Below are positions 25,666-44,734 of a stretch of 64,000 nucleotides of DNA, piece after piece. The notes under the pieces are model-generated. The model saw only the letters and a list, made by a program, of their open reading frames with translations, was not told the origin of the DNA and made no database searches. Location of the stretch: positions 2,279,195-2,343,194 of the forward strand of contig MU004182.1 of NCBI GenBank assembly GCA_010093605.1, written 5' to 3'. The DNA comes from Lophium mytilinum. Lineage: Eukaryota. A program made the translations under genes and the position numbers. Every line of letters begins with the position of its first letter. The first letter of the stretch is position 1.

Positions 25666-28600
25666 GAGTGATCTTATTTTACCTACGGCCAAGCACGCCA
25701 GGCCCCACGCCGGCGCGCGCACGGCTCACCACGCCGAGGTACGCCCGCGCACACAAATTTATATATAGAATTGTGCTGTGGCGTGTATGCATATATATTC
25801 ACTTAATTTCCTCTATTAAAGTAACTATGCCGCGCCCCTATATTAAGCCTTATTAGGGCCAGCTTACTAGCGAGCACTAGCTGCTATAGAACCCCCTAGA
25901 ACTTACTAATTAGCGTTAAAAGCTCTATAATATCGCCGCCCCTATTAAAATCTTAAATGCCGCCTTTAATTTATACTAGCTATACGTATCTAATATCTAG
26001 AAGTATATAAAAGACTATACTAGAAAGATAGATAACGCCTATATAAGGTTCTATAAGTGCCGCCTCTTTACTAAAATAAATAAATTCTCTAAGAAAAATG
26101 CTGCGAAGAATTCTAATAAAGAAATTAAGAGGTAGAAAAGAACCTATAATAGCAGCACCTACTTATATTCTATTTAGATAGAATAATATACTAGTTAAAC
26201 CTCTATATTCTAGAGTAATAGAGGCGGTAAGAGCTATTTATATACTCTTAATAGAATAGATTAGCTTAAGAGGAATAAGGGCCTTAGAAAATAGGTAGAA
26301 ATTAATATTATATATTAATCTGCACTATTTAATATACTTTTACAACTCTAAGAAACTTAATATTAACGGGATAGAAGGGCCTAATTAGTTGCTGCTAGCG
26401 GCGCGCATCTTATAGTGCAAGATATTATTAATTAGGGTAAATTCTAGAGAGTTAAGTATCTAGATCTTTATATTAAAGGCTATAATAATCCTTCTACCTA
26501 GTAGGTGTCCGCCGCTATTAAGTTTCTTAACTAAAATGGGTGGGTCTACTAGTAAATACGGGTTAATAAGCATAATATAGCTTAATAGGTAAAGAGGGCT
26601 ACTTTATATAATTCTTCTTCTAATAATATATCTATAGGTATAGTCTTCTACTATCTAGAGAGGCTAGAGGCTCTTAGAAAGTATAGCACGCTTATTCTTC
26701 TTAACTCTACGTATAAAATAAATAAGCTAAAATAGTATTTATATACCTTTATAGTGTAAGATACTATAGAAATATTTATTCTAGTAGCTTACCTTCTTAC
26801 TAATAGAGAGGACGCTAATATACTAGCAGTAGTAATAAGGGTTATTAAAGGCTAGTATAATAAAGGCTAGAGAGAGGCCTCTTAATAGGCACCACGTTAG
26901 TTTCTTATAGATAATTCCGCCGCTAAATAATTAGCTATAAAAATAGTATTTCTAGGCCTTTAAAAAGGAGAGTAAGAGGTAGAGTATCTTCTTTACTAGA
27001 TTTATTTACGCTGTACGCTTATTAGATATATAAAGAAAGAACTAATTTAGAAAGAAATATACTTAGCGTTATATTACTATTCTATAGAGACTATAGTATA
27101 GAAAGCTATAAAAAGAGCTATATTACTAGTATATAAGATTAAGGTTAAAAAGCCGGGGTAATATAATAAGATAATTATAGATATAATTGCCCCTACTAAG
27201 CGCAAGGTAAGCCGCTTTTCTAATTATTAATTACTTATATATATATTAAGAAATAGCTTATTAAGTATAGTATTATTAAAAATAGAAAGGCTGCGCAGCC
27301 TTTCTATTTTCTATATATATTATACTATAATATTTAGTCCTATATAGATCTTATTATAGTATAGAAAATTACTTTTTTACTTACTTAGCCTGTTCTATAG
27401 TATTTTTCCTGCGCGTACTTCTTATTATAAATATAAAACTTATATACTTATAGAGGAAAAAAGCACCTATACCCCCTCTAACTAACTACCTACCGGCCTC
27501 TATAGCACCTACCGCTTTACCTAGTTATTCTATTATAGTAAAAGAATAATATGCGCTATTACTATCTAGTTCTAGGGCTCTAGAACTATCTAAAAGTAAA
27601 TAGAGGAAGGTAAATTTTAACCTAGTTTAATACCTCTACTATAAGTAGTACCTAATACTCCCTTTATAGGTAAATTTTAAGCGCGCTTATATTTTATTAC
27701 TCCTCTAGATCGCAACTACTAATGTAAACAAGTTCTAGCACTATGCAATTAAAAAGAAGTCTTAAAATACTAAGAAAATAGCGGGCAAGCATTCCCTCTA
27801 GGGAATGCTAATAAATCTCTATAAAACTACACTATAATATAACTTACGTGCTACTAAAAGAATTACTTAATTATATTCTATATACCTACTAGAGGCCTAT
27901 TAATTTCTAGCTCTATAGTAATTTCCGGTGGTTATTTAGAAGAAAATAGTAGTAGAAATTAACCTAGCTAAGTAGTATATTAATAACAGTATTCCCCTTA
28001 AGAAATATAATAATAAGGTGCGTTATATATATAAATTCTTTAAAAGGTATAAGCTACTATACTACTATATATAGTAGAGAGAGATTCTCTATAAAATACT
28101 TAAGAAATTCTATTAGAAGGACTATGCCTATATATTTAAGAATGCCGGCCTAGAGATATACTAAAGCTAGGGCCTATAGTATATATAGCAGGCATAACGT
28201 AAAGAGAAAGTAGAGAAGTAGATAGCTAAGAATAGATAGACTCTAAGAGTATATAAGTAATAGAATATACTATATTCTTAGTAGTTTAATCTTATAGAGA
28301 AGAGTAAAACTATACCCTTAGAGAGCTAATTTAACTATAGAAATAAGTAGATAGATAGCCTTAGGCAGGCTGTAGGCCCCCTTATAAGAGGGAGCGCATA
28401 TAAGTAGCTTTTCTTAATAGATTTCTACAGCGTACTTAATACTAAAAATATATTTTCTAAAGGGGAGACTTAGAATAAGCTTAATAGTAAGAAATAGAAG
28501 GCTAGCGGCCTTAATTAGGGTAAATAGACTAGCCTAGAGCATAATCTTAACTATATTTAGATAGAGAATCTTAGAATAAGCTTAGATAAAGAGGAATTAG

Positions 28601-38723: not shown

Positions 38724-40208
38724 ATGTTTTTCCGCGCAGCTGTCGGAGTTCCTCTCCTTCTTTCAAGCCTTGCATCCGCCGCATTAAATGGCACTTACCC
38801 AGCGAGCACCACCACAAACCTCAATTGCGCCACGAAAATGGGCAAACACTCCGCTTGCCCAGTCCCCACTTGCACAAAGCTCTGGACTGTCGAGGCACCT
38901 CCGGTCATTATCCCCTCATATACGCAAATGACATTGACCTATACCGGGAACGCCTCTACGATCACCTCAACCGAGACGGTACAAGTAACCGCTACAGTCA
39001 CGGACTCGACTATCACTGACAGTATGTTGCTTCCTAATACCGATGCGTGTACAATGAACTGATTTCTTCTAGCGTTCTCGACGACATCGACTGAATATGA
39101 CACCATCACCGAGACCATCAGGTACATCCAGCAACCTCAAACCCTTCTTCTAGACCTGAACTGATGTCTCGTAGTACTACGACCACGTTCACTGAGACTG
39201 ACACTGCGACGACTACATCTACCTACACCTCCAGCGTGCCGACAGCGAGTGGCTTTGTACCTGTCTCTGACACGCTCAACGGTTACCCGGGTTCCCAGTC
39301 GCAAAAGAGAAATGACTGGAGCCAACTCGAAGCCCGCGCAGCCAATTCTACGGAGTGCGGTGTCCCGAAGGATGACTATCCCCAGTCTGTTGAGTGTATG
39401 TTTTCAGTTCGCGATATTGAACGAATTGGGCCCCGTGGATGTTCTCGTGCTGATCTTTTGCAGGTTTGGCTGAGATAATGGTTCAGTCAACCAAGTTGGT
39501 TACTGTGACGCAAAGCCCAACCGTGACGATTATCACTCCAGCTCCTTCCAGCACGACTGTGCAATCGACAGCAAGTACCCCTTATTGGTTTTCTGCGGGC
39601 AGTCGCTAATTTCTTCCTCAGACGACGTCTACCTCCACCATCGTTCCCGACGATGTTTCGACAACGGAAAGGTAAACCCGATGCTAAGAGCTACACCCTG
39701 CCAACTGAAGCTAACATCTTGCAGCTTCTCGACCACAGAAACTATGACCGAAACCGCCGTAAGTCCCCAATTCGCGCACTCTCACCCGGGCCGTCCATCC
39801 CACTGACATCGGTAGACTCTATCCTTCACTGAGACCGCTACGACTACCACTACCGTGGAAGCTGCAGCTGCAACGACCGTTATCGCAGCCTGCGCGGCCG
39901 ATAACATCGTTGGGCCAATTGACGGCCGCAGTATCTATAATGTCTTCAACATCGGTCCGAATGCAGCAACTATATACGACAATGCAGCAGCTACATCCGC
40001 TTACGACTGCTGTGCTCAATGCTTCAACAAGGACGGTTGCACCGGCTCTATCTACGGATATGGCAGGTGCCTCTTGATGCACAACAGCGCCCGCACATGC
40101 GACAGCCAGAGTGCGAATGTTGCGTACTTCGTAGCTCAGACGGGCTCCGGAGGTTACGCTGTTAGCAACGGCAACTGTGGGTACCTGTATGATCATGGCG
40201 CTTCGTAG
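38724..40208 (+). CDS. Secreted Thr-rich protein with a C-terminal Cys-rich (apple/PAN-like) domain; 7 exons
   Basis: Signal MFFRAAVGVPLLLSSLASA. Introns 39022-39072, 39122-39174, 39396-39463, 39571-39621 (GC-AG) and two more near 39672-39724 and 39759-39815 keep a continuous Thr-rich frame. Ends YDCCAQC...C...C...VSNGNCG. Confidence 0.75.
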
Positions 40209-40874
40209 AGGCCCTTCATCGTGCTCGTGAGACGGCTGCTAGAACAACATCACACCGCTGTAGGATCTCATCTTACGTTGAATAGTAACTTTTAATACAA
40301 CTCTTAGTTTGGCGCCAAGCATTGAGTCAACCGTGTTGATTTTTACGTTCCGGCTTAATGCCAGATGAAGCAACGCAGGGCCTCGGACAGTGATGAGCAG
40401 AAGGGCACAGGCTTATGTCCAAAAGCCTCCACGGACTCGGAACTTGCGCTAGTCGAACACTCATTATTAGCAGCTGCATGCATGTAGCTGATGTGCGAAG
40501 GATCACTACTCGGACCCCGTCGGGTTGTTTCAAAAAGATCATAGATCAGCCCGTACGTACGACGGGGCCCGTGTACGGGGTGGGGGGTGGCGGGAGGAGC
40601 GATCATACAACCGGGTATCTGACCTGCATCGCTATGCAAACCAAGGGTTTTACAAGCAGATCCGCTAATATATTTCTTAGAGTTTGTCGGCTCGCCTAAT
40701 CACAATCGGCGTGGCTTCAGCCTCAAGCTTGAGCATGTAGATATACATACAAGCGCGCTCTCAACAGCCGCATCTACTGTACCTCTAGAGTAAGCGTGAA
40801 ACATTACGACTCCATAACTCAGGAGCTTGTAGCAAGTCAACGGCGATGCCTCACCAACAGTTCCAAATCTTCGC

Positions 40875-43800
40875 TCACGACTCCGCAAGATGGAAATACA
40901 ACGCCGCCAACGCTGCCGACAGCGTCGCAACCATCCACTGGCCAATACCGAACCCAGACTCCTGCGTCTTCATCGCCAATGCCACGACGATCGAGACCAC
41001 GAAACTCAACACCAGAATGATACAGAGGGATAGACTCAGCAACGGCTTGTTCGGTCCTTCGATAATATGGATGCCCCAACCCAACGTCAGCTCATTAGGT
41101 ACGCTCTGCTTTAAAATGCTCGAATGCAACTTCTTCGGCATACGATCGAAGAACAGCCGACTCTGGCTGCCAGCGTGCTGCTCGTGGTTCCAGAAATAGT
41201 GGAAGAATGTCCTATGGTCGATCGGAGGAAGTGGGTCTAGCGGACACTCATGGTAGTGGTATCGTTGCTCTTTGACTTCTAAGTGAGGTGGAATGGCCAT
41301 CGGCTTGTCGTACACGCCTACGCGGTGGCTGTCAACGACGCCAAAGCGCACGAATTGGATATCGACGGGTTTGAAGAGGAAGCCAAATCGGCGGCTGCGG
41401 CGGAGGGAGTGGTAGCGTGCGTGAACTAAGGAGAAGAAAGCGCTGTCGGTTTTGACCTCGGTGATGCCGTTGCTGGTTCTAGAGGTTAAGGGGATCTCGC
41501 CGAGGCTGATGCGGAGGGTCCCGGTATTGACGCATAGTTCGAAGAAGCGGTCTGTAGCTTGCCTGGTGCTAGGGCTTCTGAAGTTGATGCATTGGGACAG
41601 TGGATAGACGTTCTGCGTGTTCGAGTTGGGATTTCCTGGGGCCCCTAACGTTTGCCGGGGGAATAGCGGCTGAGAGCTAATCCCAGTGGATCCAGAACTC
41701 GTTGGCATCAATACAGCGTTGTCGATTGTACTGGGCGTGTTTTGAAGCGTTACTCCCAATCGATGTGGCGTAGTCTGGTCGTGATCTTTTACCCTATCCT
41801 GAGATCCATCCAGCTTGTTTTCTTCCACTACTTCGAAACGATGGTCGATATCATCATTCGATCTAACATCATATTTCTGTCCCACCTCTACATCAGACAA
41901 CACACACTTGTTGCACATGCAGTATTCTTCTTCTGGGGCCTTGGTCAGGTGCTCTATACAGAGTTGCCGTTTGAAGGACTCTAGTGCATGTATATCATCG
42001 CACTTGTAGTCGCCGTACATTGATTCGCCACAGCTCTGGGAAGGGCAGAGATTTATTAGCAGGCATCTTCAGAAGAATAGACTCAAAGTGAATCCCATCA
42101 CAAACGCGGTAACCAACTATGCCAAGTTCAAGACTGGTTCGAGTGGGCATATTTAGGCTGTCTTGACTTCCGGAAACTGTGTAGATCTTTGAACTTCATG
42201 AAGAACTCAAGACTTACACAAGTCCACTCAAGCCGCTCATATCCAACTTTAACACGCGGACGTAAAGCTACTTTGATTCCAGCTATAAGGCGAGAAAGGC
42301 TTAAAGGTAGGTATACCTCGACACTGGCGATCTTTGGCAAGCGCGGAGTAGAATACGGTGAGATCACTTTGGCTCCATCGTTTGCATTAGAAGGGGATAT
42401 TGAATCGGGGAGCTCTTCTGCTCTAGGCTCGTTGTTCAGGCGGGAGGCCTGCGCCGCCTGCCCAAACTTGGCTTTGTCGCCCTGAACCTGAGCCTGATTT
42501 TCTGCCTCTGGGATCTTTTGGGTCTTGAAGTGATCATCATTCAACGAGGGAGAGATATCAGCATCGTGTGTGACTTGACCAAGCGAAGAGACCCCGAAGT
42601 TGTCTCCAAAACCCATCGCATTTGCCCTATTAAGTGGCCCTCCCCCAACAAGCAGATTAAAGTCTAGAGTCGTTTGGACGGTTGGCGATTCGGTAGCCTG
42701 AGGGGCGTGTTCAATTTCGGAGAGTATGAGATTGAGAGGCGCGTCGCGTATTGTTTCTTTACCACATTCGACGCACATGTCCGCGGAGTGGGTCCTGTGG
42801 GTATGTGAAGACTCCTCTTTATTCCGGACGGCCTCTAAGTCAGAAAAGGGCCGCTGAAGTGGGGCACTATTTTCTGGCGGTCCGTCGTTCTTCGTGTGAT
42901 CAGCTTCAGTTGCTGCAACTTGTTGCTGGTTATCTTTTCGCTCAGTGGACTCTTGCTGGCGAACGAATGCTTCAGAATAATGCGTGGCCTGGCGCCTTGT
43001 CTCCTTTGCGAGGTCTGCTTGGGTTTGGTACCATAGATCAACGTCGTCTTTCGTCTGGCCTTTTTGGAAATCGTCGGCCTTCACCCATAGTAATGCCTGA
43101 CCGCGATCTTCTTCCTTTAACGGCGCGAGATCTCCAGAATCAGATATGGAGCGACGAGGTAACTTCTCCACTGCTTCACTAACTCCAGGGGAGAGTTTCG
43201 TCCTTTTGGAAGAAAGAGAGGAACGACTGCCTTCTCGATAACTATGACCTAAATGGTTTCCACGACCAGCGCGGATGCCTCTTCCCCCCTGGTTGGATGA
43301 AGTGAACGGAACTGGAACAAACGGAAACTGAACCCAATCTGGCGTTGTATTTGGTTTCAACGAAGAGTTTTGATTGCGCTCATTCTCAATCTTGGGATCC
43401 TTGTCCTGGGGCATTTTCTCCCATCCATGTAATGAGGTGTCTGGGGTGGGCCACCATTCTGCTTTTAGAGCTGATTCAACTGAAGATAGGCTGGCAGGTA
43501 GCGCTTCCGGCTGCCGGAACAGTGTACTCCCGTCTGTACGTTGATCAGACCTAACACCAAGCGGGTTCTTTGAGAAGGTAAGACGTATGCCACCTTTGGT
43601 ACTGTTCGGCAGAGGATAGGCGTACAAGTGGTTTAGCGATTTGGTTGCCGATACAACATCCTCGAATTCGACGGAACACATTGGGCCATTCTGCTTAGTA
43701 CGAAAACATAGTCTTTTATATCCAGGTTCTCGAGAGAATAGGGACTTCAGCAGATCTTCCGGAGTGTCAATGGGCAAATTTCCCACATAGAGTGTGTTGC

Positions 43801-44734
43801 ATGGAGGATTATGATCCGCTGGATTATTTGGAGGAAAATTGGATCTAGTAGAAAGTGAGAAGATTGACCAGGTATGATAGGTATTTAAAGCTTCAAAAGC
43901 CGAGTTTGAATGAGGACAAATTAGTAGACACTAGTTCTCGTGGTACTTACGGGGAAGATGTTGATGGAGCCAAGCGTGGCTCAGGCCCAAGAGAGTGTTT
44001 GCGAGATGATGCAGTGCCGACGGGGACGGTGTTGCCGCTTCCTCTATTACGCTTCTTGATGACATCCGTTTTCAGCGATAGTGGCCGAACAACACCATGC
44101 AGCTTTAAGAAGAGACCGCACGCATTGCATAGCGGACGCCCTTCGGCGTTTTGTCGCCATAATGGGGTAATCTGGGTGAAGCAATTCGTGCACGTCGTCG
44201 GCACGTCGTTCTGGTCACCCTGTTCGGTTCCACCCGGAAGGGCAGGCCCCATCTCGAGTGATAGTATAGGATTTGATTCAGATAACAGAACTTTTGGTTG
44301 AGGGTTGTCTGCTAATCCTGGCGAACAGCTAGGAGGATGCTCATACAGTACGAATGGTTCAGAGCTAGAGCCAGATCGTCGCTCGAAACCTTCCAGCCTT
44401 TCCTTTAGTTTCTTGCCTATGGACCGTGAGCTGCAAAAGCCTGTACAACAACAGATACTCGCCTACGGTAATTGCGTTGAGCGATCCGATTCTGAACACG
44501 TCTCCGATCGGCCAGATCCGAGATCTCAGTGAACGATCCTGTAGAGGCATACTCCGCACTATATGAGGGCAATGAGTTTGGTCCATGGCGCGCACTTTTT
44601 GATGCGTCAGCATCTCGTGTTCTTTACAGTATGGAGTCTTTCGAATTCTTCATCAGAACTCACTCGCTGCTCTCATCGTCCGGGACACCTCCAGCGGACG
44701 TTGGTGGGTGTTGAGCTACCCACATAGGCTCCAT
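40875..44734 (-). CDS. Chimeric protein: bZIP basic region + AreA-type GATA finger + Whi3-type RRM + uncharacterised C-terminal domain with 2 TM helices (~1150 aa)
   Basis: Exons 44734-44664, 44594-44467, 44416-43951, 43844-42218 and 42035-40875 (71+128+466+1627+1161 = 3453 nt). Splice phases are consistent and there are no internal stops. The first exon is the least certain. Confidence 0.75.

Follow-up and report, generated by a model that had tools for sequence, protein, structure and literature searches.

A transcribed gene of Lophium mytilinum that joins partial copies of three regulators to a predicted membrane-anchored unit

Chimeric new genes made from gene fragments include jingwei and the Pack-MULE and Helitron captures of plants, while Spt23 and Mga2 of yeast are examples of transcription factors bound to a membrane. 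A gene of Lophium mytilinum, a wood-inhabiting fungus of the Dothideomycetes, has features of both kinds. It occupies positions 44734-40875, on the minus strand, of the 64,000-nucleotide stretch of contig MU004182.1 that we analyzed (the window, to which all coordinates refer), and it consists of partial, in-frame copies of a bZIP-like protein, areA and a Whi3/Scw1 RRM, followed by a long linker and a complete C-terminal unit that belongs to an uncharacterized family of ascomycete proteins. A first-pass annotation of the window, made from the letters alone, had described one gene in which short pieces of three unrelated regulators sit on a C-terminal domain of unknown function with a predicted membrane anchor, and this description is borne out.

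Three groups of described systems come close to this gene. Like the chimeric new genes that arose from partial duplicates (e.g., in Drosophila), it has several fragments in one transcribed frame in one lineage; at this locus, however, no flanking transposon signature was found, and a repeat search gave short, chance-like matches only. With the membrane-bound transcription factors (MYRF, SREBP, ATF6/CREB3L and putative fungal proteins combining NDT80 with a transmembrane segment; PMC13294678) it shares N-terminal DNA-binding modules and a hydrophobic anchor near the C-terminus in a single polypeptide. In this 2026 paper, the fungal NDT80 transmembrane proteins without the MYRF ICA domain are proposed as a new class of such factors. 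The Lophium protein differs from all of these in having no recognizable ICA, S1P/S2P or other release device, in its anchor, which is a different and unnamed beta-grasp-like unit, and in carrying three unrelated, altered nucleic-acid-binding pieces. Finally, the integrated decoys of plant NLRs and their proposed fungal equivalents (PMC12258605) are also duplicated, diverging fragments of host regulators placed on a different scaffold, but the Lophium protein has no nucleotide-binding oligomerization domain (NOD), no repeat sensor and no paired helper, and its scaffold is the predicted membrane-anchored unit.

A transcribed chimera of three regulator pieces

Five exons join into one open frame of 1150 amino acids (aa), with a coding sequence of 3453 nucleotides (nt), a sole, terminal stop codon and introns of 69, 50, 106 and 182 nt, each with GT..AG ends. 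The first-pass annotation had assembled the same five exons into a frame of about this length, and the peptide strings that it quoted all lie where it had placed them, in minus-strand open reading frames (ORFs). Exon 1 (44664..44734; this and all features below are on the minus strand unless noted) begins with the start codon at 44734, which is also the start of the GenBank model (P0001), and an in-frame TGA lies 11 codons upstream of it. Intron 1 (44595..44663), intron 2 (44417..44466, within the bZIP-like basic region) and intron 3 (43845..43950, between the areA and whi3 pieces) alternate with exon 2 (44467..44594), exon 3 (43951..44416) and exon 4 (42218..43844), whose 542 codons hold the RRM piece, the linker and the first half of the N-terminal motif of the C-terminal family. 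Exon 4 alone lies within a 600-codon stop-free frame, which is not given by chance. Intron 4 (42036..42217) leads to exon 5 (40875..42035; stop codon 40875-40877), the product of which is 100% identical to residues 732-1117 of P0001.

A search for sequencing runs found three, two of DNA type, from which the assembly may have been made, and a third, X3, that the tool guessed to be RNA; none is recorded as RNA. A 2622-nt contig of X3 comprises 42218-43844, 43951-44415/6, 44466/7-44594 and a stretch from 44664 to beyond 45000, so that it extends upstream of the start codon, reads exon 4 as a single unbroken piece and joins exons 1-2-3-4 with the omission of exactly 106, 50 and 69 nt, each stretch being bounded by CT..AC when read on the plus strand. 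In the DNA run X1, a 30-kb contig retains all three introns and has zero differences from the window across the whole locus. Because the X3 contig is devoid of three GT..AG introns that are present in the DNA contig, we took X3 to be cDNA-like, and introns 1-3 are therefore removed as predicted. The exons with the bZIP-like piece and the GATA finger are thus carried by the same spliced molecule as the RRM, the linker and the opening half of the motif of the C-terminal family. Two of the three junctions named in the first-pass annotation (44466/44417 and 43950/43845) are joined in this contig; the third, 42217/42036, is unbridged among the contigs listed and is backed by the family motif instead. 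Exon 4 ends in ...EWTC, and its fusion to the start of exon 5 restores the motif W-x-C-x-C-G...YGD[YF]. P0002, the closest homologue, has this motif in one piece, as do 40 of the 150 homologues listed when all are counted; the W, both C and the G are invariant in an alignment of these 40 sequences. Intron 4 is thus supported, by comparison, by the invariant family motif that it splits. A second X3 contig covers 40680-42035. The two contigs stop precisely at 42218 and 42035, which, coming from one study, hints no more than weakly at a branch at the splice sites. Their depths (43.7 versus 557.6) are useless for ranking exons, because the exon-5 contig also includes 501 nt of the transcript of the convergent neighbor.

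The locus is already in GenBank as one protein of 1117 aa (KAF2501739.1, BU16DRAFT_613580; 100% match in a phmmer search with exon 5), which its sources call "hypothetical protein" or "RRM domain-containing protein." That model uses a donor at 42317/42316, by which 33 residues (window 42218-42316, minus strand) are missing, among them the half of the motif that reads RPR...EWTC. The donor of the GenBank model is misplaced and the 42217/42036 junction of the first-pass annotation is better, because the spliced X3 contig continues through the 99 nt that the model omits; the residues encoded there are also present in P0002. Literature searches on the gene or its architecture retrieved no specific description. 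The locus is a known database entry of which we found no description, with an architecture placed on an uncharacterized family.

The first-pass annotation had assigned the three N-terminal segments to AreA, Whi3 and a bZIP protein; the AreA finger and the Whi3-type RRM are above the Pfam cut-offs, while the bZIP segment is below them and amounts to a basic region and first heptad. The areA fragment spans aa 124-221 (43953..44246), and its GATA finger occupies aa 142-169 (44109-44192). Pfam GATA (PF00320) scores 54.9 bits against a gathering cut-off of 26.8, and the AreA finger of A. nidulans, the structure of which is solved (PDB 4gat), is matched with an E value of 5e-33. An intact areA, which the first-pass annotation had expected elsewhere in the genome, is indeed present on another contig (P0235, 917 aa, with PF08550). 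The captured piece is identical to residues 669-772 of this protein at 79 of 104 positions (76%), flanks included, and the alignment covers flanks in which the Lophium AreA differs from the A. nidulans protein; judging from this alignment, the piece is evidently a copy of the fungus's own areA. AreA is identical between Lophium and Mytilinidion over this stretch. The chimera shares with AreA/NIT2 proteins (PDB 4gat/5gat) the finger and its flanks, the four zinc cysteines in the pattern CX2CX17CX2C and the basic tail of the finger, but colinearity with AreA orthologues ends there, since it holds only residues 669-772 of 917, with six substitutions and a 7-aa deletion, and both PF08550 and the AreA C-terminus are missing; GATA and RRM_1 are the sole Pfam families in P0001. 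Repeat-induced point mutation (RIP) was considered as the source of the substitutions and set aside: G:C-to-A:T transitions make up 3 of the 6 finger changes by codon reading, and there are zero stop codons.

The Whi3/Scw1-type RRM fragment (aa 224-321; 43547..43840) scores 33.6 bits with Pfam RRM_1 (PF00076), against a gathering cut-off of 20.7, and together with its characteristic N-terminal flank is 75-81% identical to proteins named Whi3 or Scw1 from many fungal classes. The similarity is not full length. Matches cover 28-48% of a 330-aa query, with about 100 aa aligned, whereas the Whi3/Scw1 proteins have about 500-740 aa, and the chimera also differs from them in the replacement of the RNP1 aromatic residue. 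No Whi3 of Lophium itself was found among the best 120 of 2584 or the best 120 of 2171 matches listed. The RRM is followed by a linker of about 410 aa (aa 322-731; 42317..43546) that is rich in S, A, P and E, and for which we found no relatives in Pfam or, with aa 325-715, in the Atlas.

The bZIP-like fragment lies at aa 34-84 (44364..44566, across intron 2), its basic region at aa 48-80. Along a stretch of about 42 aa it shows 77-79% identity to short fungal proteins of 114-584 aa, several of them named "BZIP domain-containing" by their sources. The search returned 22 matches among 176 candidates, none of them from Lophium or Mytilinidion. Both Pfam models stay below their cut-offs (bZIP_1, PF00170, 10.5 versus 27.6 bits; bZIP_2, PF07716, 11.5 versus 22.3) and cover profile positions 7-35 only, i.e., the basic region and the first heptad. 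The small proteins of the donor type are likewise below the Pfam bZIP cut-off and have no long zipper. By these sequence comparisons, the bZIP assignment is weaker than the GATA and RRM assignments.

The C-terminal unit and its family

The complete unit comprises about 320-360 aa and consists of a W-x-C-x-C-G beta-hairpin, then a variable insert and a conserved core, and finally two long helices at the C-terminus. All the features of the family are found in the Lophium protein, including W-x-C-x-C-G..YGD[FY], the GWG-H-I-EG end of the core and the two hydrophobic helices. Its N-terminal motif (...RPR..G..R.EW-C-x-C-G...YGDY) lies at aa 741-774 (42006..42289, across intron 4) and corresponds to a beta-hairpin with a predicted local distance difference test (pLDDT) score of 90-94 in the model of the family member P0104. 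The variable insert follows at aa 775-926 (41550..42005), and the matching place in P0104 has low pLDDT. The beta-grasp-like conserved core takes up aa 927-1094 (41046..41549), and the two hydrophobic helices, predicted to form a membrane hairpin, are at aa 1095-1119 and 1126-1150 (40878..41045). The closest homologue, P0002 of Mytilinidion resinicola (641 aa), is 78% identical and carries none of the captured pieces. Identities with it amount to 147/157 in the core, 62/68 in the helices, 46/55 in the N-terminal motif and 72/135 in the insert, and the Lophium protein aligns to it from residue 695 onward only.

A phmmer search against 1.84 billion representatives found 646 proteins with E<=1e-3 (288 with E<=1e-10 and 52 with E<=1e-30), the 646 being clusters at 50% identity. 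The named members are all Pezizomycotina, and those in the Atlas list are Ascomycota. There was no Pfam match to exon 5, and 0 of 67 short homologues matched any family-specific Pfam model. AlphaFold2 gave a pLDDT of 85.1 and a predicted template modeling score (pTM) of 0.77 for P0104, and a pLDDT of 92.4 and pTM of 0.84 for the Lophium core, with the helical hairpin modeled. Foldseek had no match at E<=1e-3, its weak rows being ubiquitin-like or beta-grasp folds, and in VIA-align the lists were dominated by matches of the helical hairpin to membrane hairpins (Z 5-6.8), while beta-grasp rows reached only Z 3.1-4.0. The fold searches therefore assign neither a fold nor a function to the modeled unit, and its likeness to the beta-grasp appears weak. 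The Kyte-Doolittle maximum of the first C-terminal helix is 3.1, the second helix is weaker and the N-terminus of the protein is hydrophilic. Considering that there is no signal peptide and that the anchor is at the extreme C-terminus, the N-terminal 1090 aa should face the cytosol, held by a C-terminal membrane anchor.

The first-pass annotation had expected the homologues to vary in their N-terminal domains. They do, and the variants are phylogenetically scattered, although few long members carry any Pfam domain. We listed 150 homologues, 46 of which have at least 400 aa, and counted Pfam families at E<=1e-3; a family was found in 12 of the 46 long homologues and none in the other 34. The 12 are the Lophium protein itself, four proteins with ankyrin repeats, two with NDT80, one each with Myb, HET and C2H2 (below the cut-off) and two with a CorA-like domain (below the cut-off). 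NDT80 (P0102 and P0149), Myb (P0050) and ankyrin occupy the same N-terminal position as the Lophium mosaic, and one of the NDT80 members is the RefSeq "p53-like transcription factor" of Trichoderma citrinoviride. For a tree, we kept the 102 of 150 unit sequences in which a sufficient part of the unit was covered by the profile match and dropped the other 48. The 12 labeled rows need 12 changes on it, against a mean of 11.5 after shuffling, and 500 of 500 shuffles were as low, which corresponds to a fully scattered distribution; the two NDT80 rows are placed in different clades, and so are the ankyrin rows. Nearly identical cores occur in proteins of 311 and 849 aa, and also of 464, 622 and 1333 aa. 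Promiscuous fusion and uneven gene models would equally give such a scattered pattern, and some of the domains may be artefacts of gene models.

Modules of the same kinds were also seen in other contexts. P0158 of Trichoderma aggressivum (1736 aa) has an NB-ARC domain (residues 696-886), two AreA-like GATA fingers (the best at 951-984) and TPR repeats (about 1390-1660), and its finger has the same R-to-Q change in the loop as the Lophium copy. On the basis of its annotated, unverified gene model, this protein is possibly a fungal NLR with an integrated GATA domain. Three proteins from metagenomes or the ENA (P0220, P0251 and P0207) show other combinations: those of 1240 and 1331 aa pair a Zn2Cys6 cluster with an AreA-like GATA finger, and the one of 620 aa has ankyrin repeats together with a Whi3-like RRM.

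Readings of the chimeric protein

We consider it highly probable that the gene is real and chimeric. The opposing explanation, that exons 1-4 end within a retained intron 4 and exon 5 belongs to a separate transcript, or that the locus is misassembled, draws on a stop codon 30 codons past the donor in the retained intron, on the lack of a contig across 42036-42217 among those listed and on the different donor chosen in the GenBank model. We regard it as very improbable, given that intron 4 splits exactly an invariant family motif that is uninterrupted in the homologues mentioned above, that the RPR...EW half of the unit is encoded in exon 4 and shares a contig with the RRM, and that the 30-kb DNA contig spans the locus without differences, though this contig possibly comes from the source sample.

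As to what the protein does, we infer that a tethered, possibly released transcription factor, the third option of the first-pass annotation, is the best fit to the data, and we hold such a membrane-bound regulatory mechanism as a tentative possibility. A DNA-binding domain, the GATA finger, and a predicted anchor, modeled as a helical hairpin around a strongly hydrophobic helix, are part of one polypeptide. The unit would hold the GATA finger, the basic region and the RRM at a membrane, facing the cytosol. There they might sequester DNA with GATA sites, RNA or AreA partners outside the nucleus; alternatively, the N-terminal part might be cut loose and act as a competitor of AreA that has no activation domain.

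Several observations weigh against this. No cleavage site or processing domain could be recognized in the protein, and none of the listed contigs covers the junction between the linker-bearing exon and the exon with the anchor. The captured finger differs from its parent by the six substitutions, located between the PGGT and GTAS flanks, and the 7-aa deletion, and its tail has diverged. In the RRM piece, 4 of 59 columns invariant among 11 orthologues are altered; RNP2 is intact, and the RNP1 aromatic F found in 11 of 11 Whi3/Scw1 orthologues is S in the Lophium copy. This aromatic position matters for RNA stacking. The bZIP-like piece retains its basic region and has lost the motif that the donors conserve just before it, and by alignment and Pfam it has no leucine zipper, with about 12 helical residues after the basic region and then a Ser/Pro-rich stretch. 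All three captured modules are thus altered where their parents are invariant, and nucleic-acid binding may be impaired. The architecture has also been seen in a single species. A GATA finger and an RRM occur together in 1 of 120 rows listed, which is the Lophium protein itself, a DNA-binding domain scores above the Pfam cut-off in only 4 of the 46 long homologues, and in Mytilinidion nothing but its AreA matches the first 125 or 330 residues. From these searches, the mosaic N-terminus looks like a young invention of one species, specific to Lophium among the sequences searched. The G+C content at third codon positions (GC3) is 0.71 in the conserved core (last ~220 codons) and 0.41-0.50 in the first 926 codons, a part that also includes the unit's ancestral N-terminal motif and insert; neighboring genes have 0.56-0.62. 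Finally, none of the four accessions and orthogroup identifiers searched for is in the supplement of PMC13294678, and any link to the published NDT80 class is tentative.

Some of these same observations favor the main rival, in which the conserved C-terminal unit does the work and the captured pieces are decaying relics that have lost any regulatory role and either form just a disordered extension or are bypassed by an internal start. The substitutions hit central positions invariant in the parents (the RNP1 aromatic, the loop of the finger and the motif that precedes the basic region), the zipper is absent, GC3 is low in the first 926 codons, and the closest homologue works without captured pieces. 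The N-termini of the family are in general long, Pfam-free (34 of the 46 long members) and unalignable, as is the Lophium extension before residue 695 in the comparison with Mytilinidion. Nevertheless, 735 codons and three splice junctions have remained open and in frame at about 25% divergence, which is unlikely under drift; by a rough estimate, about 10 stop codons would be expected had these codons drifted neutrally to that amino acid divergence, and zero are present. Given zero stops and three intact introns, the N-terminal extension has probably been kept open by selection. The zinc ligands (4/4), RNP2 and the basic region are also intact, and the 5' exons are part of the spliced contig. 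We therefore consider this rival a serious although somewhat unlikely explanation. A receptor of the bait-and-execute type, with regulator pieces that mimic the targets of an antagonist's effector and a membrane unit that signals or kills when they are hit, is quite improbable. It would agree with the varied, tree-scattered N-terminal domains of the family, with HET in one member and ankyrin repeats in four, with the AreA-type finger pair between NB-ARC and TPR of the Trichoderma protein (which has the same R-to-Q change) and with the integrated decoys proposed for fungal NLRs in PMC12258605. Nonetheless, nothing marks the protein as the surveillance or cell-death receptor that the first-pass annotation had entertained. 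Pfam detected no NB-ARC or NACHT in the exons or in P0001 at E values up to 10, and no NOD or recognized death or pore domain in the protein or its unit; the fold of the unit gives weak beta-grasp matches only, the neighboring genes are ordinary, with no NLR or helper nearby, and no effector is known. The scatter itself would be equally expected from promiscuous fusion or inconsistent gene models, as the lengths of 311 and 849 aa illustrate.

A tethered regulator stays our preferred, though tentative, reading of the protein. What the data establish is a transcribed, Lophium-specific chimera of partial, in-frame bZIP-like, areA and Whi3/Scw1 RRM copies with a linker and a complete unit, a clean and splicing-supported case of a young fungal gene made from three regulator pieces, one parent of which (areA) is identified in the same genome. 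It also draws attention to a large family of ascomycete membrane proteins without a Pfam model (646 clusters at 50% identity), with unusually changeable N-termini in which DNA-binding domains sometimes occur. If the unit were a tether or release module, a fungal class would be added to the membrane-bound transcription factors; if it acted as an executioner, surveillance based on baits would have a route that needs no NLR. A broader proposal, which we judge unlikely, is that the unit is a general device of the Pezizomycotina by which exchangeable N-terminal domains (NDT80, Myb, GATA, ankyrin, HET) are kept at a membrane, either as a novel system to release transcription factors from membranes or as a bait-and-execute receptor, of which Lophium would have the version with three baits or cargoes (AreA, Whi3 and bZIP-like). 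As it stands, the gene is a curiosity of one species.

Surroundings of the gene

The neighboring genes code for ordinary or housekeeping proteins (EF-hand, Afi1/SPA, MFS, Pkr1 and a kinase), and there is no NLR or helper gene near the locus. The X3 contig with exon 5 runs on for 501 nt, joining 40613/14 to 40680/81, and the 66 nt that it skips have GT..AG ends on the plus strand (40584-40681). This plus-strand splice indicates that the transcript of the convergent upstream neighbor, with Thr/Cys-rich ORFs near 39450-40240, overlaps the 3' end of the gene. Farther away in the window there is an AT-rich island at 26001-28000, with a GC content of 0.29 versus 0.43-0.60 in the remainder, that may be a RIP-affected repeat.

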